From UHGV virus genome UHGV-1371557: a DNA stretch of 37,452 nucleotides; one strand, written 5' to 3'. Positions 108 through 17,721 of the stretch are shown here, one piece after another (within the stretch, counting starts at the first letter, position 1; every line of letters starts with the position of its first letter). Position numbers and translations under genes: made by a program. The notes under the pieces are model-generated. The model was not told the origin of the DNA. It made no database searches and saw nothing but the letters and a program-made list of their open reading frames with translations. This DNA comes from a virus.

Positions 108-1457
108 TTAAAGTTCATTAGATGATACCTCTTTCCGTCCGTTATGCGTCCGTTGTGAGGACAGCAGCGGACGGTTGAACTTTTCCATCTCCTGCGCCTT
201 GAGGGTATCTGCGATTGCGATGTACGGACGCATCGTTGCCTCGGTTTTGTGGCCTGTATATTTGCGGATGACCTCAGAGGGGATGCCAAGGGTGAGAGCC
301 TGCACAACAAAGGTATGGCGCCCTATGTGCGAGGTCACGACCTCATACTTCGGTAGTGACTCCTCGATGCGCTGGCGACCAGAATATCGCAGGCGTGTGA
401 CGGGTGCGTCTATGCCCGCCTGCTTGCACACGCTTTTGATCGCTCGGTTTAGGCGTTGCTCTGCCATTGATGGAAGTGGCTTCTCCTCACCCTTATACTT
501 ATTGAGGATAGTGCGGGCGTGGTCGTTGATGTCCACCTCGATCAGCTGGTCCGTCTTCTGTGCGTAGTATCGTATGCTTCTCTCTGTGATGTTGTCGTGT
601 GTCAGCTTCTTCAAATCCGAGTACCGCAGGCCAGTGAAGCAAAGGAAGCAGAAGAGGTCACGTGCTATCTTCTCTGAATGCAGGCGTAGCTCTACCTCCA
701 TAAGTCGGCTCAGCTCCTCCCACGTGAGATATACCTCGGCTCTGTTGCTATCGATGCCCTTTAGGCGCACCTCGAAGAAACGGCGGTAAGCCTTCTCGTA
801 TAGACCCTGACCTTGTGCCCAATAGAGTGCGCTCTTTAATATGCGGAGTGTCTTGTCTACTGATCCATTGAGAAGCCCACGCTTCGCTGTTAGGTGCGTG
901 ATAAAGTCTGCCACCCACTTCTCGTCAATATCCTCCAGTGTAGCCGCCTGCGAGTAGTCTGCTATGTGCATACGTGCGGTGCGTATGTTCGCCAGGTGTC
1001 GCTCGCTCCAGCTTCGTCTCCCGCTCTCAGCTTCTACGAATAGGTCGATGAGTGCGACTATCTTGCGTTTGTCCTCTGGGCTTGCCTTTGCTGGAGCTTC
1101 TTTGGTCGTTCCCAGCGCTTCTCCGAGGTACTCATTATACTTTGCCTTTAGCTCCTCGGGAGTGGGTAGTCGCTCTTCCCTCTCGAAGTAGTTAAACGCA
1201 CTCTCGACAGCCTCCTCCGTGTACTGCAGCGCGCGGTTTATCATAGCGGCTGGCGTGCGTCTATCTCCGTGCGTCGTGTTCTTCATGCACCGCTCCGACT
1301 CGGCACTCCACTTGTCTGGCTCGACGCGGTAGCCTACATACACACTGGTTATATAGCCACTGCCACCTCCGTAGCGGATGCGGTAGCGGACTTGCAGAGC
1401 CTTCCAGCCTTTCTGCTTATCGAGGAGGAAGTGGCAGGTACGTCGTATAGGTAGCAT
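108..1457 (-). CDS. int: Tyrosine-type site-specific integrase (phage integrase family)
   Basis: ORF of about 450 aa at the left edge of the prophage. The C-terminal region has the R...H-x-x-R...Y catalytic pattern (HIGRHTFVVQALTLG ... GHKTEATMRPY) and the N-terminal region looks like a core-binding domain. The ORF-track start at 1499 is a TTG; the first ATG is at 1455-1457. Confidence 0.85.
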   Translation of the reverse strand: MLPIRRTCHFLLDKQKGWKALQVRYRIRYGGGSGYITSVYVGYRVEPDKWSAESERCMKNTTHGDRRTPAAMINRALQYTEEAVESAFNYFEREERLPTPEELKAKYNEYLGEALGTTKEAPAKASPEDKRKIVALIDLFVEAESGRRSWSERHLANIRTARMHIADYSQAATLEDIDEKWVADFITHLTAKRGLLNGSVDKTLRILKSALYWAQGQGLYEKAYRRFFEVRLKGIDSNRAEVYLTWEELSRLMEVELRLHSEKIARDLFCFLCFTGLRYSDLKKLTHDNITERSIRYYAQKTDQLIEVDINDHARTILNKYKGEEKPLPSMAEQRLNRAIKSVCKQAGIDAPVTRLRYSGRQRIEESLPKYEVVTSHIGRHTFVVQALTLGIPSEVIRKYTGHKTEATMRPYIAIADTLKAQEMEKFNRPLLSSQRTHNGRKEVSSNEL

Positions 1458-1476
1458 GTTGTGTCGTATTTTATTG

Positions 1477-1512
1477 TAAAACCATTTCGTTGAAGCCAAC
1501 GAAATGGTTTTA
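1477..1512. terminator. Perfect 15-bp inverted repeat (AAAACCATTTCGTTG / CAACGAAATGGTTTT) with a 4-nt loop, flanked by A/T runs. Candidate bidirectional terminator or protein-binding palindrome between int and the upstream gene.
   Basis: Read directly from the sequence at 1478-1492 and 1497-1511. The A4 and T4 tracts are part of the stem ends, so it could terminate on either strand. Confidence 0.5.
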
Positions 1513-2631: not shown

Positions 2632-3201
2632 CTACAGGTCGGAACTCGCTATTTCACCCGCCTTTTTAATCAGAGCGTTGTCCGCATACATAAGCATTGC
2701 ATACTTGAACTTTTGACTATACTCTGGTCCATCATTCTTATAGGATAGCATAATTGTAGATCGAGAGTCTACATAGCTTCCCTCATAAGGTTTTGATGGT
2801 GTATCCATGTTGTCCTCCCAGCCTCTGTATTTAAGAATTAGACTATTTTTCAGTCGATCTGCTTCAGACTTGTCAGGTATCAATATGATCACCGTGTAGA
2901 GGATGCTGTCAACCGTTTTCATTATAATCTTATCTCGGGTCTCTCCCCAAAACCTCATACCGCTAACAGCTATCGTTTTCATCCTTGGTCCGTCAGTCGC
3001 ATCTGAGAAGTTTTCAATCGTCCCTCCTTGTGCTTGAACATTTTCCTTTATCTGCTCCAGCGTGGTCTCTCCAAGGGTGCACCCTACTATTGTTCGGGTG
3101 ATAACGCTTTTTGGCTTAGCGTTGTTGCGCTGTGCAAAGCCTGCTATAGTGGTTAGGAGAATGAGCAGTAGTGCTGCGAATGTTGAGTATAGATGCCTCA
3201 T
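2632..3201 (-). CDS. Secreted protein with an N-terminal signal peptide (MRHLYSTFAALLLILLTTIAGFAQ)
   Basis: 189-aa ORF. Hydrophobic h-region followed by an A-x-A-like cleavage site, with no Cys lipobox. It lies in the lysogeny-oriented block. Confidence 0.7.
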   Translation of the reverse strand: MRHLYSTFAALLLILLTTIAGFAQRNNAKPKSVITRTIVGCTLGETTLEQIKENVQAQGGTIENFSDATDGPRMKTIAVSGMRFWGETRDKIIMKTVDSILYTVIILIPDKSEADRLKNSLILKYRGWEDNMDTPSKPYEGSYVDSRSTIMLSYKNDGPEYSQKFKYAMLMYADNALIKKAGEIASSDL

Positions 3202-4630: not shown

Positions 4631-4662
4631 TTTGGTAAGTCAACCAAATTGGTTTACCTTTG
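4631..4662 (+). promoter_or_regulatory. Candidate Bacteroidetes sigma-A promoter (TTTG-N20-TACCTTTG) for the Cro-like/early-right transcript, inside a divergent operator region
   Basis: TTTG at 4631-4634 and TAccTTTG at 4655-4662 with a 20-nt spacer. Inverted repeats read from the sequence: GTTGA...TCAAC (4625-4643), CTTCAA-AG-TTGAAG (about 4696-4709) and CAAAATTTG. Confidence 0.5.
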
Positions 4663-4749: not shown

Positions 4750-4965
4750 ATGGCTGAAATAAGAGTTCCTAAGAGCCACTCCGAAAAGTTAGATGAGCGC
4801 GCTCTCAAGATGCAGGCCGATTACCTGCGACTCCTGTCACAAGGCGGGGGAATTTGGCAGGTAAAGAAAGCCCTTGCCAAAAAATACAAGGTGTGTATGG
4901 TGACAGTCTACAGCACGCTCAAGCGAGCTGAGGAACTGAACGCAACCACCTCTGCCGAAGGCTAA
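4750..4965 (+). CDS. Cro-like small HTH regulator
   Basis: 71-aa ORF divergent from the repressor. Helix-turn-helix-like segment IWQVKKALAKKYKVCMVTVYSTLKRA. Confidence 0.55.
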   Translation: MAEIRVPKSHSEKLDERALKMQADYLRLLSQGGGIWQVKKALAKKYKVCMVTVYSTLKRAEELNATTSAEG

Positions 4966-5169
4966 GCCCTCCAGCGACCGCGATCTTTGACATACTTGAT
5001 ACAAACAATGGCGAAACGAAATAATCTGCGGGTGAAAGGCCCGCGCGTGATTAACCCATTGTAGTTAGTCTGTGGCCTATTGCGCACAGAGCGAAGCCGT
5101 GGAAGGCACGGAACACCCGAGGATCGCAATCCTCCTGACTACACATTAGTAACTACAAATAATACGGCT

Positions 5170-5388
5170 ATGAATAGAATAGGAATAGTGCTTGCCTATC
5201 TGGTTGCAGGCGCACTTTGCGTCTTGGGCTTCCTCGGCTTTCTGCTGATAGTCTCAGACACTGACCACCCAACAATGCCAGCAGTGAGCACCTCGGAGTT
5301 CCTCATCAAGAAGTTCGCAGGCGTTCTCCTCCTCGGCATCACCGTCTATACGTGGCGAGCTATCGAGCGCTACGGCAGACAACATTAG
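5170..5388 (+). CDS. Small membrane protein (2 TM)
   Basis: The ORF track gives 5080-5388. The first ATG with a hydrophobic N-terminus (MNRIGIVLAYLVAGALCVLGFLGFLLIV) is at 5170. Confidence 0.5.
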   Translation: MNRIGIVLAYLVAGALCVLGFLGFLLIVSDTDHPTMPAVSTSEFLIKKFAGVLLLGITVYTWRAIERYGRQH

Positions 5389-5416
5389 CGGATAGATTCT
5401 CTTTTCTTCAATCCGT

Positions 5417-5455
5417 GGCGCGGGCGATCAATTTAGAGGTTCCCCGCGCCCACAA
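5417..5455 (+). terminator. GC hairpin (GGCGCGGG / CCCGCGCC, 18-nt loop) followed after 8 nt by TTTTT. Weak terminator candidate.
   Basis: Read from the sequence. It lies 29 nt after the stop of the 5170-5388 gene. Confidence 0.3.
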
Positions 5456-5495
5456 CGTTTTTAGTTTCCATATGATTTGATTTGTTTATTAGATC

Positions 5496-5543
5496 GTGAG
5501 GACGAACTCGGGAGAGCAAGGCCTCACAAAAAAGTACGCAATA
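5496..5543 (+). repeat. Hairpin A: stem GTGAGG/CCTCAC, 20-nt loop ACGAACTCGGGAGAGCAAGG, then ACAAAAAAGTACGCAAT
   Basis: Read directly from the sequence. It is the paralogue of hairpin B at 5745-5790. Confidence 0.6.
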
Positions 5544-5544
5544 T

Positions 5545-5610
5545 GTCGGTGCGTCGGGCGCAGGCCCCCTGATGCTACTTATGCCTTCATCAGCTCGGAG
5601 GCGCACCGAC
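5545..5610 (+). repeat. Nested inverted repeat: outer 9-bp stem GTCGGTGCG/CGCACCGAC enclosing an inner 6-bp stem CTGATG/CATCAG
   Basis: Read directly from the sequence, in a non-coding stretch. Confidence 0.5.
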
Positions 5611-5744
5611 CAAAGTAGAATAATAGACCGCTATTTGGGCGGTCATCCCACCACGGCTGAAAGGCTGTGGTAACATACTCTTATTGTTGTCCAGCCAGCC
5701 CGTGAGGGTGTAGCTGGAATAGTGATGAATGAACGAACGATCTA

Positions 5745-5790
5745 AGCGCGACAAACCCGAGAGGGCAAGGCGCGCTACAAAGTAGACAAT
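5745..5790 (+). repeat. Hairpin B: stem AGCGCG/CGCGCT, 20-nt loop ACAAACCCGAGAGGGCAAGG, then ACAAAGTAGACAAT
   Basis: 16 of 20 loop positions are identical to hairpin A and the loop length is the same. The stems have unrelated sequences but both are perfect 6-bp helices. Confidence 0.6.
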
Positions 5791-5990
5791 CTCCAAAATC
5801 CAACAACTCCAATGATACAGATTTCCAACACCGATGCAGTAATCATCGCAAGGACGCTACGGATACTTGGGACTAAGAGCTACGAAAATAGCCCGAAGGA
5901 TCTCAAGTGGCAGAATGCGATACGCAATGCAAAGCTCATGGCGAGGAAGCTCACACGCCACCTCGAACGAGCCTCAATAGATACATAGAT

Positions 5991-6513: not shown

Positions 6514-6740
6514 AGAAGATAGACCGACGCGAGGTGATAGGAGCGATACAGCGACACCTCCAGCTACGCAAGGAAGAAAGACGGCTGCCGCTGATCGTAC
6601 TTAAAGAGCAACTATCCTCGGTAGTCGGCTATGGCTTCGATACTCTCCGCCCTATCCTGCTGGACCTCTATCAAGAAGGTCTACTGATCTCTGGGCGCAC
6701 ACTCAATTCTACCTACTTCACACTCCCAGAATATGTGTAA
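6510..6740 (+). CDS. Hypothetical protein, possibly a winged-helix DNA binder
   Basis: 76-aa ORF whose start overlaps the previous stop and whose end overlaps the next start. Confidence 0.5.
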   Translation: MKKIDRREVIGAIQRHLQLRKEERRLPLIVLKEQLSSVVGYGFDTLRPILLDLYQEGLLISGRTLNSTYFTLPEYV

Positions 6741-8004
6741 GCATAAATACATACCACTCGACATCTTCGCCATGCAGGACGCTAAGATAGAAGCACTGAC
6801 TGCAGAGCATGGGATGGCGGGCTGGGGCATCTACACCGCCCTCCTCCTAAAGCTCGCACAGCAAGATGAAGATGGGTACACTTATCCAAACAACGCCAAG
6901 CGCCTGGCGAACATCCTGCCAAAGCGCCCAAGGGCGGAAGTCGTGCGATCCACTATTGAGGACTTCGGTCTGTTTGAGATCGCCACCGATGAGGATGGAG
7001 TAGAGTACTTCTACTCACCACGCCTCACCTCACATCTCTCAACTCTTGGCGGTGCAGATAAAAAGCAAGGCGAAGAAGCTGCACCGAAGAAGCGCAGCTA
7101 CAATGTAAGTCAAGCGGTCAAAGAAGGCTTAGATAGAGCTCGCGAGGCTAAGCGCAATCGCTCAAAAGTAGAAGATGAAAGTAGAAAAGTAGAGAGCAAA
7201 GTAGAAACGAAAGTAGAGACAAAAGCAGTCAAAAGTAGAAAAGTAGAGAAAGCAGAAATGAAAGTAGACGAAAGTAGAGAAGGCGTTTCTACTTTGCCCT
7301 CTACTTTCAGCTCTACTTTGGGGGGGACTATAGGGGGGGTAAATACCCCCCTAAAAGAAAAAGATAAAATAGAAGATGAAAGTCTCCCCCAAACCCCCAG
7401 GGGGGGCTTTGAGAGCGCGCAGAAAGAAATAGATGCGATAGAGGACCCTGCGCTTCGCGCTATGGTTAGCTCGCTAATGTATCCGAACTCAGATATGCGA
7501 GACTTCGGTAAGGTGTGGCGAGCACTCTATGAAGAGGCGACTGCTGGTGATGATGGCTTCGCTAAGTCAAGCATCCTATCGCAGGCCATATGTAGAGACG
7601 GGCATGAGCTGTTTGTTGCGCTGATGCCCGACCGACCAGATGGGAATGCCAAGGAGCGTCCCACGGTGGCGACCACACTAAACGCAATAGCCCAATTCCG
7701 AAAGATGATGGAAGAAGCCAAGGCATCCACCTTCCTACGAGGCAATCGAGCCATGGCGAGTCTGTCGTGGCTTGTCAAGCCAGATAACTTCGCTAAGGTC
7801 GTGGAGGGGTGCTATCGAGACAACACTGCCTCCAAGCCGTCATCTCCTCCTCCTGCATCCCAGAACTACTCAAACCATATGTGGGATGAAGTCAAGGCTT
7901 CGCAGGCGCAGGCCGAAGATAGCGAGGAGATGAAGGCATACAAGGCTTCTGTACTCAAGATAACACGAAGAGAAGGCGAACAGCAAAAAAAACAACAGCA
8001 ATGA
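6733..8004 (+). CDS. Replication initiator/replisome organiser (N-terminal phage-replication-initiator-like domain; iterons lie inside the coding sequence)
   Basis: 423-aa ORF. The N-terminus (IPLDIFAMQDAKIEALTAEHGMAGWGIYTALLLKLAQ) resembles phage replication initiator N-domains. It contains the iteron array, and its stop overlaps the start of the DnaC-like loader gene. Confidence 0.7.
   Translation: MCKHKYIPLDIFAMQDAKIEALTAEHGMAGWGIYTALLLKLAQQDEDGYTYPNNAKRLANILPKRPRAEVVRSTIEDFGLFEIATDEDGVEYFYSPRLTSHLSTLGGADKKQGEEAAPKKRSYNVSQAVKEGLDRAREAKRNRSKVEDESRKVESKVETKVETKAVKSRKVEKAEMKVDESREGVSTLPSTFSSTLGGTIGGVNTPLKEKDKIEDESLPQTPRGGFESAQKEIDAIEDPALRAMVSSLMYPNSDMRDFGKVWRALYEEATAGDDGFAKSSILSQAICRDGHELFVALMPDRPDGNAKERPTVATTLNAIAQFRKMMEEAKASTFLRGNRAMASLSWLVKPDNFAKVVEGCYRDNTASKPSSPPPASQNYSNHMWDEVKASQAQAEDSEEMKAYKASVLKITRREGEQQKKQQQ
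7166..7406. repeat. Candidate origin of replication: at least 9 direct AAGTAGA iterons (7166-7278), 3 inverted TCTACTT copies (7288-7318), then G7/C6 inverted runs flanking a 32-nt A-rich tract (7320-7406)
   Basis: Iteron start positions are 7166, 7179, 7187, 7199, 7211, 7233, 7241, 7262 and 7272, mostly 8-13 nt apart. The inverted copies are at 7288, 7300 and 7312. Next come GGGGGGG-ACTATA-GGGGGGG-TAAATA-CCCCCC, an AT-rich stretch, CCCCC-AAA-CCCCC-A-GGGGGGG. The whole array stays in frame within the initiator gene. Confidence 0.7.
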
Positions 8005-11938: not shown

Positions 11939-12292
11939 ATGACCAAAGAACAAAAAGAGGTGCTGACAGCGTGGTGTCTCAACCTGCTTGTCACCTATCG
12001 TGTCGACTTCTTCCGAGGATTAGTGCTATCGGACACGGTGAACTTCTTTAACATGGAAGACCCAGACCGAATAGAGGTAGCGATAGAGAGCTGCCGCGGA
12101 GCCGACAACCTCGGCTTTGCGCCCGATCAGAAGGACTACACCGAGCTACTTAGAGAGCTACGCGAGGTAGCGAAGGAAGTTCCACTAAGCGACACCGCAC
12201 AGAGCGCCATTACCCACGTCTTCGGGGGTGAGTGGGAGGAAGCGATAGAAGCCCTCTACAAGCTCAAGACCGAAAGCAACGAACAGAAGTAA
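11939..12292 (+). CDS. Hypothetical protein
   Basis: The ORF-track start at 11909 is a GTG. The ATG at 11939 follows the previous stop by 5 nt. Confidence 0.5.
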   Translation: MTKEQKEVLTAWCLNLLVTYRVDFFRGLVLSDTVNFFNMEDPDRIEVAIESCRGADNLGFAPDQKDYTELLRELREVAKEVPLSDTAQSAITHVFGGEWEEAIEALYKLKTESNEQK

Positions 12293-12311
12293 CCAATAAA
12301 ACGAAACGACA

Positions 12312-12482
12312 ATGAAGTACATCGTAAAGAACAGACTCACCGACGCTATCTGCGGAGAGTTCGCAACGTATGGGCAGGCTGGCAAATGGGTGGAGGAATA
12401 CACCCACGAGCAGAACGAAGGGCTATCTCCCGACGATCCAAGGTACTGCTCCCCATTTGACTTCATCCTGACAAGTAAGTAG
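12312..12482 (+). CDS. Possible small ORF (56 aa, MKYIVKNRLTDAICGEF...). It is below the 60-aa cut-off of the ORF track.
   Basis: It fills an otherwise empty 270-nt gap and has an A-rich start context. Confidence 0.25.
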   Translation: MKYIVKNRLTDAICGEFATYGQAGKWVEEYTHEQNEGLSPDDPRYCSPFDFILTSK

Positions 12483-14762: not shown

Positions 14763-14957
14763 ATGAGCGCTGTACTAATCATCGCCGTCACAGGCCTCGT
14801 CCTCGGCTTAATTTTTTTTTTGCCGGGGCTCGTTCTTCCTCAAGTCTACCGACAAGCCCTCTTCGTTGGCAGGCGGCCTGCGTGTGGCATTGGCAACCAT
14901 GCTGGAAAAAGCCAGCCACTTATCACCACGGTCTTTAATCAGAAAGGATATGAGTAA
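14763..14957 (+). CDS. Possible small TM protein. It contains a T10 homopolymer at 14812-14821.
   Basis: 64-aa ORF whose end overlaps the start of the 923-aa gene. Confidence 0.3.
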   Translation: MSAVLIIAVTGLVLGLIFFLPGLVLPQVYRQALFVGRRPACGIGNHAGKSQPLITTVFNQKGYE

Positions 14958-17721
14958 CACGACATTCAAACACTACGTAGCTCCGTTCAAGGACGTATCT
15001 GGGAATATGTGGGCGCTTATCATCGCCTATCCCGACACGGATGAAACCAAGAACTACCCGAAGGTAAAGGAGGTGCGTCTTGGCGTGCCTGCGGTGACGC
15101 TGACGACGGAGAGCGAGGACGCTCTTGCCCCAGTAGTCAAGGGTAGACTGGCATTCTCTCTCTTGGAGGAGAGAGCGGACCAGCGGTATCGTCACCTCGT
15201 GCAAGCTCCCGAGGGAGACGTGTCGGTCGTGCTGATGTATCTTGGTGATGAGAAGCTTCCTGCGAATGGAACTTTGAGTGATCAGTGGATGCAGGCCTGC
15301 ATTGATAGGTTTGACCCGACGACAAGCTCTGGTAATTGTTTTTGGTGCGGCACTCTTGACCCTGAGAGCTACAAAGAGCCAGCCAACCAAGACACAGGGT
15401 ATCTTGTCAGCTTCGAGGCTAACGACTTCGGGAGATTTGCAAGAATACCCATAACCAGCAGGCCGTTTGAGCCACTGATACGAGTGCAGGAGAAGATGGA
15501 ACTTGAGGGGCTTCTTCGAATCATTCTGTACATGGGTATCGAGGGATGGGCGCACGAACGCCACCGCTCACCGAAGCGTCCAGGGGGGGTGCTTCTTGGC
15601 CTCCGTAAGAATGTGGTTTTTGCGATGTCAAGGTATGATGCCGAGGCTGAATCCTTGAACGGAGATGTTATTTCGCGCAGAGAGAGAGGGCTGATTGTAG
15701 ATACCTCTCAGTTCTTCGAGGACAGCGACACTCCGATGTCTCTTCTGGAGGTGCTTGAGCGTGTTCTTAGCTCGCTTAGCCTGCGAATAGAGCAGTCCAG
15801 CGGAATGTACATTGTTTCGGATATATCCTCTCTCGAACAAGGCAACGCGACCCCAGCAGCCACACTCAACAATAAAGACTCTCAGTTGTCCTTTACTCCA
15901 GTACAGATGAAGGTGCTTGGAGATGATGGAGAGCTGTCTCTTCATGAGAGCTATGGTAACCTTGTCGTGACTACATACACGCACCTTGATTCCGTACGCA
16001 AGGGTATGGAGCTTCCAAAGATTGAAGACTACGCCCCGTGGGTGGCAGTAGGAAGAGCTGATGTATCCTCGAAGAATATCCTCGGCTGGCGATTCAGAAC
16101 GACGGACCCGCTCATGGGTACAGCTAAGACTCCTGCCATACTGGAGGTAGAGGCGGAGACACTCGGTGAGGATGGGCGCTTTTACTCCTTGGTATGGAAT
16201 CCTAAGAGTATCCACGGACGAGTGAAGAGCCTAAAGTTCGGTGGTTTTCTCAGTCCAAAGTTTACGGAGTACAGTGTTTTCTACGCAAGAGTAGACGGCT
16301 GGAAGCGTGTGCGTGATGGTGTGTATGTCAACCAAGCCCTAAAGCTGGTAGACGAGGACTGCGTGATTTATGACAGCGGCGCTGACCTCAACGAAATCAC
16401 CTACGACCTCACCAAGTCGTTTAACAACTATGCAGCGCAAGAGGAGGGTGCTATACGAGGGTATGTGCAGATGCTCAAGTGGTATCGAGATCAGATGAAC
16501 TCAACAGAGCGCCCGCTTGGACTCAAGCTCAACGAGAAAACCCCTTGGACTATGGAGATACCGAACGTAGGAGATATATCTAACTTCTGCCTTCGTCTTG
16601 ATATGCCTCTGCTACTCTCATTTGGCTCAGATCTCTATCAGGAGATGAACGAGGTTACGGGTGAGCGCCTCAAGATGTACTCCAATAATTCGTCGGGACG
16701 AAACTATAACCTCGGAGATCCAGAGGGCACGAAGAGGATAAACGACTCGGCTAAGGCAAATAAGGAGTTTACGGACCAGCTTATTGAGGCCCGCGTCCCA
16801 TTCAGTCTGACTGCGACTAACTCCAGCGGAGAGAAGTTATACCTCATATATAATCAGTACAGCCAAACGGGTGAGCTGATGTGGACGACAGGCCCAGCAG
16901 GATCAACTCGAAGTGTGCCATTCCTTTCCTATGGAGGGGATAAGAGCAAACTAAATTGGGGGAGTATAACGCACGCTCGCAGGAACATTGGCGACCAGCA
17001 GGGGGACGGGGTATTTATTCCACTTCCTCCACGAGGTTTCACCCACTTAGAGTTAGAGGTGTTCAGCGTACCTACATTCTACAAGAAGAAGGGTGACAAT
17101 ATCGAGCAGTTCACGGAGTGGAAGCTGTGGAGCGTTCCCAGTGCGGTACTCGCACAAGCTCCATCGATGTGGATCTCTGACTACCTCGGTCGAACGGGTG
17201 ATGATATAGCCAAGAACAGACGGGAGCGGTTTACTTTCAGTGACTCTACGACTGAAAGCTTCGACGACGAACTGCACTTCTCGGCAGGCTATGGTATCCC
17301 ATCAGCTTCTCCATCTATACTGCGATACCTTGGTGACGGGAAGAGTCTTGCGGAGGTGTTCGGTGCAAACAGAATGGCTTCCGACGATTATCTCCTTTCT
17401 GCTTACCGAGCGCGTTGCTTCGGTAGAGTCTACGGAGCTTTGCCCACAAGAGGGTATGCGCTCTCTGGTACGTTCGCTTGGTGTAAGTACCCACTGCACC
17501 GACTATACGTAGGCTTTGAGTGGATAGCTGTCAGTCGAGAGATTGATATAGTTCAAGGCACAGAACGAGGGACATACCACCAGCTGCGCCCAAGGTATGA
17601 GGTCACCCCCCGTATGCTTCGCCCTGAACTTCTATCGGGAGAAAAGGATGTGAAGTACGTGGACTACGCAGGCTCGGCTTGGAAGATAATAAGAGACCAC
17701 ACGCCAAGGCGTGGTAGGTAG
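14950..17721 (+). CDS. Large (923 aa) protein of unknown function. Candidate structural/tail-tip protein or a novel accessory function.
   Basis: Long ORF. The start was set at the ATG at 14950, which follows AAAGGAT; the ORF-track start is a TTG. No nucleotide-binding or polymerase motif was recognised. It is followed by a terminator. Confidence 0.8.
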   Translation: MSNTTFKHYVAPFKDVSGNMWALIIAYPDTDETKNYPKVKEVRLGVPAVTLTTESEDALAPVVKGRLAFSLLEERADQRYRHLVQAPEGDVSVVLMYLGDEKLPANGTLSDQWMQACIDRFDPTTSSGNCFWCGTLDPESYKEPANQDTGYLVSFEANDFGRFARIPITSRPFEPLIRVQEKMELEGLLRIILYMGIEGWAHERHRSPKRPGGVLLGLRKNVVFAMSRYDAEAESLNGDVISRRERGLIVDTSQFFEDSDTPMSLLEVLERVLSSLSLRIEQSSGMYIVSDISSLEQGNATPAATLNNKDSQLSFTPVQMKVLGDDGELSLHESYGNLVVTTYTHLDSVRKGMELPKIEDYAPWVAVGRADVSSKNILGWRFRTTDPLMGTAKTPAILEVEAETLGEDGRFYSLVWNPKSIHGRVKSLKFGGFLSPKFTEYSVFYARVDGWKRVRDGVYVNQALKLVDEDCVIYDSGADLNEITYDLTKSFNNYAAQEEGAIRGYVQMLKWYRDQMNSTERPLGLKLNEKTPWTMEIPNVGDISNFCLRLDMPLLLSFGSDLYQEMNEVTGERLKMYSNNSSGRNYNLGDPEGTKRINDSAKANKEFTDQLIEARVPFSLTATNSSGEKLYLIYNQYSQTGELMWTTGPAGSTRSVPFLSYGGDKSKLNWGSITHARRNIGDQQGDGVFIPLPPRGFTHLELEVFSVPTFYKKKGDNIEQFTEWKLWSVPSAVLAQAPSMWISDYLGRTGDDIAKNRRERFTFSDSTTESFDDELHFSAGYGIPSASPSILRYLGDGKSLAEVFGANRMASDDYLLSAYRARCFGRVYGALPTRGYALSGTFAWCKYPLHRLYVGFEWIAVSREIDIVQGTERGTYHQLRPRYEVTPRMLRPELLSGEKDVKYVDYAGSAWKIIRDHTPRRGR

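Follow-up and report, generated by a model that had tools for sequence, protein, structure and literature searches.

How do temperate phages of the Bacteroidales time the expression of their early genes? To our knowledge, nothing is known about this timing, and we know of no nut-, put- or Q-type system that has been described in the phylum. The question is raised by two hairpins in an early leader of the viral genome UHGV-1371557, of which the whole stretch of 37,452 nucleotides (nt) was analyzed and is referred to here as the window. Hairpin A (positions 5496–5527) and hairpin B (5745–5776) lie on the same strand, 249 nt apart. The original prediction, made by reading the sequence, described them as a pair with 6-base-pair (bp) stems of different sequence and nearly identical 20-nt loops, and drew a parallel to lambdoid nut or put antitermination sites. 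Hairpins A and B are indeed real, and they are two copies of one conserved RNA module, which consists of a structured hairpin, termed hp1, and a linear box that follows it. The hp1 hairpin is a new RNA motif of Bacteroidales temperate phages. It belongs to a familiar general type, the cis-acting leader hairpins, and its function is unproven.

The hp1 hairpin family

Each of the two hairpins has a perfect 6-bp stem that encloses 20 nt, i.e., GTGAGG-ACGAACTCGGGAGAGCAAGG-CCTCAC in A and AGCGCG-ACAAACCCGAGAGGGCAAGG-CGCGCT in B (written as DNA, + strand), and the two loops are identical at 16 of 20 positions. Directly 3' of the stems stand AAAAAAGTACGCAAT (A) and ACAAAGTAGACAAT (B), and both the loop repeat and the box repeat were recovered by a repeat finder at a spacing of 249/248 nt. 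Altogether, 15 hairpins of this format (perfect stem of 6 bp, loop of 20 nt) are present in the whole window; apart from A and B, the best pair among them matches at 10 of 20 positions, and the chance expectation in the window for a loop pair with at least 16 of 20 identities is 8.5e-5 pairs. The pair as such is therefore confirmed. The 20 nt do not, however, form the open loop that had been proposed. They are organized as ACRAA, a 3-bp helix, a GNGA tetraloop (GGGA in A, GAGA in B) and CAAGG, so that the inner part reads ACGAA-CUC-GGGA-GAG-CAAGG in A and ACAAA-CCC-GAGA-GGG-CAAGG in B. The apical helix, CUC/GAG in A and CCC/GGG in B, represents a compensatory change within the pair itself.

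Relatives of the window carry the same loop on other stems. A scan of IMG/VR with the loop consensus returned 24 loci, four of which were chance matches, and scanning again with only the A-type loop word gave 20 loci, none of them additional to those of the first scan. At least five other stems were found in relatives, e.g., TGTGCG/CGCACA, GGTGCT/AGCACC, GGTGC(A)/(C)GCACC and GCGGTAG/CTACCGC, and the same kind of box follows in all relatives with these alternative stems. A conserved loop on stems that are free in sequence but remain complementary indicates selection on structure, as had been proposed. Further phages were retrieved by means of the conserved 5' word of the DUF2693 RNA (Rfam RF02956), an element upstream of the hairpins, and the presence of this RNA was then confirmed in them. 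Their leaders contain hp1 variants with internal loops of UUG/UAG, CCAA/CGCAA, UAAA/CAAG and CAC/CGAG and with the further apical helices UCC/GGA and CCUG/CAGG.

A covariance model, R1, was built from 14 hp1 copies. It recognizes hairpin A with 45.0 bits (expectation value E = 2.7e-7) and hairpin B with 46.2 bits (E = 1.4e-7). In 691 kb of phage loci, R1 matched 80 sites, 43 of them distinct, in about 40 related viral contigs, and 633 kb of control DNA gave a single weak match (E = 0.19). Every R1 match is located in a locus that carries the DUF2693 RNA. Among the 72 matches that could be oriented, 68 are on the strand of that RNA, 508–1845 nt downstream of it, and the remaining four are weak reverse matches on palindromic copies.

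The covariation among homologues by which the original prediction was to be judged is strong. Across the 43 distinct copies, in an alignment that was fitted to the model and is for this reason biased towards structure, 91% of the cells are standard pairs, compared with 26–46% when the partners are slid, and the covariation score is 0.628, compared with 0.227 ± 0.018 in shuffles and at most 0.081 in slid controls. Compensatory changes, on both sides of the pair, occur in 10 of the 11 hp1 base pairs. An independent RNAalifold run recovered the same two helices, and all nine of its nine pairs carry such changes. G·U pairs outnumber A·C pairs, the pair closing the internal loop being C-G in 25 copies and U·G in 16, and the tetraloops are GGGA (21), GAGA (14) and GUGA (14). 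The G·U pairs and the GNGA composition of the loop place the structure on the sense strand, i.e., in RNA. The architecture of hp1 comprises a basal helix of 6–8 bp whose sequence is free, an internal loop rich in purines (5' RAA, 3' C-A/G-A-G), a 3-bp apical helix and a GNGA tetraloop. Each leader contains two to five copies, and in some relatives (the L072 group) two hp1 hairpins are only 8–14 nt apart. The expectation that homologous phages would carry the hairpins holds for the related contigs, with their compensatory changes, whereas three phages described below lack the entire cassette.

Searches of Rfam 15 with the window, eight relatives and the L072 leader, both at the gathering score and with E up to 10, returned the DUF2693 RNA as the sole match, and the hairpin region of the window (5390–5811) had no Rfam match even at E up to 10. 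The leader gave no match in a blastn search against 50,697 phage records (cultured phages). A pattern scan of one genome per species yielded 21 loci, none of which contains the stem, so that all are chance matches. In these searches, hp1 was found only in uncultivated viral contigs, and in none without the DUF2693 RNA.

The box and the layout of the leader

The box, scored as AAA(G/U)U within 14 nt, is present after 42 of about 54 distinct sense-strand hp1 units. When aligned, it reads (A)(C/A)AAAGU-R-R-A-C-A-(A/C), with an invariant C-A step, whose C falls 11 nt past the stem in 23 units and 12 nt past it in eight (range 10–15). In the window, box 1 (5528–5542, + strand; AAAAAAGTACGCAAT) has its conserved C at 5539, 12 nt past stem A. 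Box 3 (5777–5790, + strand; ACAAAGTAGACAAT) has it at 5787, 11 nt past stem B, and the ATG of the next open reading frame (ORF) is located 25 nt past this C. Indeed, the C of the last unit in each leader is 24–31 nt upstream of the first ATG, and the spacers in between are A/C-rich and G-poor. The first genes past the leaders are unrelated and of at least six kinds, including an ORF of 58 amino acids (aa), an SMC-like ATPase, an excisionase-like protein, an HExxH-motif protein and others.

Such a constant relation to the start codon is what would be expected of a portable 5' untranslated region or processing cassette, in which the hairpin would mark or protect the RNA end left once an endonuclease has cut the polycistronic early transcript, while the box and the G-poor spacer would form the translation-initiation region. 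Bacteroidetes initiate translation without Shine–Dalgarno pairing. The constant distance ahead of at least six unrelated genes and the composition of the spacers are consistent with such a cassette. So are the mosaic joints between phages, which coincide precisely with the hp1 3' arm and box (L071 3167, L074 4836 and L062 5943, compared with L117, L083 and L108), as if the unit behaved as a gene-start module. Many units, however, have no ORF next to them; these include hairpin A of the window and units 1 and 3 of L072, which are followed by hp2, a second class of hairpin. Furthermore, a stable stem would suffice for end protection and would leave the invariant GNGA, the internal loop and a sequence-specific box superfluous, and no ribonuclease is known for such a site. 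A role in processing, stability or translation is the main rival of the pause reading discussed below, and we consider it unlikely.

Separately, where genes have been inserted downstream of the leader and ahead of the next gene, they are bordered by the remains of an hp1 3' arm with a box, e.g., ...CCACGCTAC-AAAGTGAACAAC (L071 ~3150–3180, L074 ~4820–4850 and L062 ~5925–5955, oriented coordinates), which indicates that module exchange between phages happens at the hp1/box junction.

The recurrence of part of the box elsewhere in the window raises a different possibility, namely that the element acts as DNA, with the boxes as initiator sites or the hairpins as cruciform or single-strand DNA signals or recombination sites. 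The 8-mer AAAGTAGA is found in the window only in boxes 2 and 3 and in the origin iteron array (7165–7320), which is located inside the replication-initiator gene (6733–8004) and comprises 9–11 direct AAAGTAGA and three inverted TCTACTTT repeats; the mosaic joints at the box would also suit a DNA element. Yet the box is unchanged in phages with iterons AAGGTAGA, ATTTACAGC, GATGGGACA or GTGACAGCAA (five iteron types in all), and its identification as an initiator iteron was rejected. As the box does not track the iteron type elsewhere, the 8-mer common to both looks like a coincidence. In addition, the loci contain 56 sense-strand matches to the box pattern and two antisense ones, counted with the origin iterons, and the G·U pairs, the GNGA loop and the covarying apical helix point to RNA. 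A DNA-level function is accordingly regarded as highly improbable. The box was also rejected as a minus-strand promoter: its reverse complement, TACTTTG, would need one more spacer base to read TAnnTTTG, even this resemblance is gone in box variants such as AAAGTTGACAC, and the 56:2 strand bias undercuts this reading further.

The surroundings of the two units differ in part from the first description. The ORF-free stretch is 423 bp long (5389–5811), not 600 bp, and is bounded upstream by a 72-aa ORF for a two-helix membrane protein (5170–5388) and downstream by the basic 58-aa ORF (5812–5988, + strand), the first gene past the leader; both ORFs are also called on the source contig, which is of human oral metagenomic origin. 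The beginning of the leader is marked by a terminator-like hairpin of the hp2 type (5417–5450, + strand, with a T-run to 5462), which has the stem GGCGCGGG/CCCGCGCC and a loop region with AATTTAGA (5430–5437). Its 3' side continues with CACAACG and then T5 (5458–5462), and since the T-run is 7 nt away from the stem, this hairpin is not a canonical intrinsic terminator. The hp2 class is defined by a constant loop, GC-AAUUNNGA-GC, on variable stems (AGCCGC/GCGGCU, ACGCCAGC/GCUGGCGU and ACAACCGC/GCGGUUGU), and the loop word AATTNNGA of the terminator-like hairpin rides on other stems in relatives. Besides the window site, hp2 is found in L072 (~12137–12160 and ~12307–12330), L056, L016 and L054. 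In relatives it usually comes straight after a box, typically past units other than the last one, and in the window it precedes the leader.

Several further elements, all on the + strand, occupy the space between units A and B. A long hairpin outside the hp1 class (5545–5610; GTCGGTGCG...CGCACCGAC), seen in the minimum-free-energy fold, is followed by box 2 (5611–5624; CAAAGTAGAATAAT), a degenerate copy. Next come two hairpins predicted by folding: a small one that resembles a degenerate hp2 (5626–5644; GACCGC-TATTTGG-GCGGTC, compared with GACCGC-AATTGAGA-GCGGTC in L016), and CCACGGC-UGAAAG-GCUGUGG (5651–5670), which is kept in relatives via G·U wobbles on the + strand. Hairpin 'C' (5691–5717; CCAGC/CAG-CCC-GUGA-GGG-UGUA/GCTGG), recognized from sequence and fold, is probably a third, weaker member of the hp1 class; with it and with box 2, the leader holds more than the pair originally seen. 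Hairpin 'C' is not followed by a box, its score is under the threshold of the covariance model, and its stem is weakly conserved in relatives; analogous box-less hp1 copies stand before boxed copies in the L072 group. A long-range helix that would close the array (5482–5495 with 5739–5744 and box 3), suggested by the fold, was rejected, as the changes in relatives, inspected by eye, break it without compensation. A terminator scan of the + strand identified no intrinsic terminator at A or B, and hp1 is followed by an A-rich box, not by a U-tract.

Upstream context and the DUF2693 RNA

The surroundings of the leader include a cI-like repressor gene on the − strand. From the promoter P_R onwards come the cro-like gene, the DUF2693 RNA and the membrane ORF, then the terminator-like hairpin and the leader itself, and lastly the 58-aa ORF and the replication genes. 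The promoter is probably represented by a canonical Bacteroidetes sequence, TTTG-N20-TACCTTTG, at 4631–4662 in the cI/cro intergenic region, which faces the 71-aa cro-like gene (4750–4965). Upstream of hairpin A (5450–5495), and at the corresponding place in relatives, inspection by eye revealed nothing comparable to it. Since no canonical promoter was seen between the T-run and hairpin A, read-through from P_R would be the simpler reading.

The DUF2693 RNA (4982–5144, + strand) scored 167.8 bits against a gathering score of 81.3 and is separate from the hairpin pair. A set of 109 distinct Bacteroidales 16S leaders from metagenomes was used for comparison with host ribosomal RNA (rrn) operons; 81 of these leaders contain the rrn boxA G(T/A)TCTTTGA(A/C)A, i.e., G(T/A)TCTTTGANA, some 200 nt ahead of the 16S match. 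The DUF2693 RNA opens with an 11-nt word, GATCTTTGACA (4982–4992), that is identical to a natural variant of this boxA, and a hairpin is located 34 nt past the boxA word. The word lies about 500 nt upstream of the hp1 units, past the cro-like gene and before the first terminator-like hairpin, which is the position of nutR in lambda. By analogy, this suggests that the DUF2693 RNA may be an rrn- or nut-type antitermination element.

The hp1 units themselves have some features of a lambda-type nut site (boxA plus boxB), which would be recognized by a new N-like protein in concert with host Nus factors: in an early leader, a conserved linear box stands beside a hairpin whose loop is of the GNRA type, and a small basic 58-aa ORF is present past the leader in the window group and in L054. 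However, identity of the box with the host rrn boxA was rejected, as the box has only four loose, scattered matches in the 109 rrn leaders, and the exact host word sits in the DUF2693 RNA instead. The order is also reversed, with the hairpin before the box, and the units, two to five per leader, are located past the terminator-like hairpin. The 58-aa ORF, for its part, is missing in most hp1-carrying phages, and no match to an N-like family was found. The proposed kinship with lambda nut is thus not borne out at the level of membership, and a nut site of this type is very unlikely.

In three near-identical phages (L069, L076 and L105), the segment corresponding to 5396–5985 is wholly missing, and the membrane ORF is joined directly to a 96-aa gene. 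The missing block comprises the terminator-like hairpin, all leader hairpins and the 58-aa ORF as one unit, the ORF and the leader being absent together. The cassette is therefore accessory, and the two different boundaries of the missing block indicate that the deletion or insertion events were independent.

It might also be that the 300 nt spanning A and B constitute an independent non-coding RNA, which would serve as a decoy or sponge with several GNGA hairpins, or as a compact tetraloop-receptor RNA. The region (5480–5800) does fold far better than shuffled sequences (z = −5.35 on the + strand and z = −3.55 on the − strand), it contains several copies of one motif of a size suited to protein binding, and it is present or absent among near-identical phages. 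An upstream boxA would likewise be consistent with this view, since boxA protects long untranslated transcripts, such as rRNA and clustered regularly interspaced short palindromic repeat (CRISPR) arrays, from Rho (PMC12691694). On the other hand, neither a promoter nor a terminator belonging to the stretch was recognized, and its last unit is tied to the next start codon. Complementarity to the DUF2693 RNA does not exceed that of shuffled controls either; base-pairing between this RNA and the leader was no better than in shuffles in five phages and was rejected. A non-coding RNA of this kind is, in our estimate, distinctly unlikely.

A few observations concern the wider context. A 107-aa DUF2693-type protein is encoded directly past the DUF2693 RNA in the phages with the largest arrays, of up to five hp1 copies (L072, L059, L087, L094, L116, L117, L071, L090, L091, L095, L084, L014 and L111), and this protein is absent from the window and from several other hp1-carrying phages. 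The window matches a 43.5-kb contig of a human oral metagenome (ERR589680). An integrase is encoded at the left end of the window (108–1499), which contains no tRNA gene. By large terminase, the closest cultured phage is Bacteroides phage Bacuni_F1, with 49% identity.

Possible function and known systems

The hp1 hairpin and its box could together act as a hairpin-stabilized pause or factor-recruitment site, similar to opsX of Bacteroides fragilis. In this mechanism, the leader would be read through from P_R, and the hairpin would form in the RNA exit channel while the active site of the polymerase is at the C-A step, which is the geometry of a hairpin-stabilized pause. The conserved loop and the box, the latter as RNA or as non-template DNA, would be read by an elongation factor, i.e., host NusA, a member of the NusG family or a phage protein, and the unit would set the read-through and timing of the delayed-early genes. 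This reading is ranked first because the stem-to-C-A spacing of 11–12 nt and the fixed distance to the ATG fit the geometry of opsX; it is a tentative choice, a possible rather than a probable one.

Several points weigh against it. The elemental pause consensus, G-10/Y-1/G+1, is matched at Y-1 alone: if the C is taken as −1, +1 is an A, and −10 is occupied by A or C. The ops, nut and LoaP sites known to us are single within an operon, compared with two to five copies here, and some hp1 copies are not followed by a box. The three phages without the cassette keep the same downstream genes, and the module is therefore not required for their expression. Moreover, the conserved internal loop and the GNGA tetraloop go beyond the needs of a plain pause hairpin and suggest specific binding. 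Finally, neither a NusG paralog nor another known elongation factor was found among the phage genes.

The hairpins may also be binding sites for an RNA-binding regulator, the alternative offered in the original prediction. In the window, Pfam, PHROGs and NCBIfam searches detected no N-, Q-, NusG-, sigma- or RNA polymerase-like protein, in agreement with the original prediction, in which no N- or Q-like protein had been recognized, and there was no NusG or KOW match. No protein co-occurs with hp1 across all groups, in a test limited by the truncation of many loci; the 58-aa ORF co-occurs with hp1 in the window group and L054 only. An ORF of 951 aa (14866–17721), located where the early region ends, belongs to no Pfam or NCBIfam family, has a faint PHROG match of unknown function and no PDB relative; it was rejected as a polymerase, as it contains no recognizable DxDGD-type motif. 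As a separate observation, the first ORF past the leader in L016, L062, L074, L056 and L071 (MIIENELFIIP...) contains, by eye, an HEVVH motif and may encode a small metalloprotease like the anti-repressors ImmA/IrrE.

A broader proposal is that the hp1 and box units and the boxA-bearing DUF2693 RNA together form a novel processive antitermination or elongation-control system of Bacteroidota temperate phages. In such a system, boxA would load the host Nus machinery just past the cro-like gene, and the hp1 and box units would be the pause or recruitment sites. The units would either need no phage protein, as with put, or capture a host factor of the NusG family, and they would set the switch from immediate-early to delayed-early expression. 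This combined proposal is regarded as rather doubtful.

Whichever reading applies, the analysis defines a compact RNA module of fixed architecture that covaries strongly and is open to direct mutation and assay. The DUF2693 RNA, an orphan Rfam family, gains a testable function through its host rrn boxA at the lambda nutR position. If the module controls elongation, the logic of pause hairpin and ops-like element, recently found in capsule operons of Bacteroides, would apply to phages as well; otherwise, the module still represents a new protein- or RNA-binding motif with many natural variants.

Among the systems to which hp1 can be compared, the DUF2693 RNA (RF02956) is the nearest in location, since it shares phages, strand and early transcript with hp1. 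It is nevertheless a separate element, and its Rfam model stops short of the hairpins. In the LoaP-dependent dfn/mln leaders, a small hairpin with a defined tetraloop is bound by an elongation factor for read-through (PMC12691694). Like this hairpin, hp1 is a small leader RNA hairpin with a defined tetraloop; the LoaP hairpin, however, has a UNCG loop, is present in a single copy and has LoaP encoded nearby, whereas hp1 has GNGA loops, is multicopy and has no partner found in the phage.

With lambda nut and the boxB-boxA-boxC arrangement of E. coli rrn operons, the phage units share a linear box beside a hairpin with a GNRA-type loop, in an early leader between the cro-like gene and the replication genes, and in rrn leaders, too, the hairpin comes ahead of the box. 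The phage box nevertheless differs from host boxA, the true host-type boxA being located 500 nt upstream in the DUF2693 RNA, and hp1 is larger than boxB, with two helices and an internal loop, and multicopy, with no N-like protein found. As for the terminators, the units are located downstream of the 5417–5462 hairpin, and weak terminator-like sites are present far downstream, e.g., at 14792.

In opsX of B. fragilis (Saba et al. 2024), the pause hairpin extends to −12 to −9, the element in the non-template strand covers −11 to +1, the ATG has a constant position of +41/42 or +9, and the 12-nt element is read by the NusG paralog UpxY (PMC11685472). The phage module occurs in the same phylum and also in an operon leader, with the base of a hairpin about 9–12 nt behind a defined position, then a conserved element about 12 nt long, and the first start codon a short, constant distance downstream. 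The spacing from stem to C, taken as the predicted phage pause position, is 11 nt (23 units) or 12 nt (eight units), compared with 9–12 nt in opsX. The differences are that a UpxY-like gene is the first one downstream in opsX operons and none was found in the phage, that opsX has one site per leader where there are two to five hp1 units here, and that the phage box is A-rich, with neither the G-10/G+1 pause consensus nor the small hairpin of the non-template strand. The conserved internal loop and GNGA of hp1 have likewise not been reported as needed by opsX pause hairpins.

The putL and putR sites of HK022, as they have been described, differ from hp1 in that put is located directly past the promoter and acts on the polymerase by itself, whereas hp1 is repeated and accompanied by a conserved linear box. 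Both are, however, paralogous cis-acting stem-loops of early leaders, known by their structure with compensatory stem changes; put needs no phage protein, and the same may be true of hp1. The closely paired hp1 copies of some relatives, 8–14 nt apart, resemble the two put stems.

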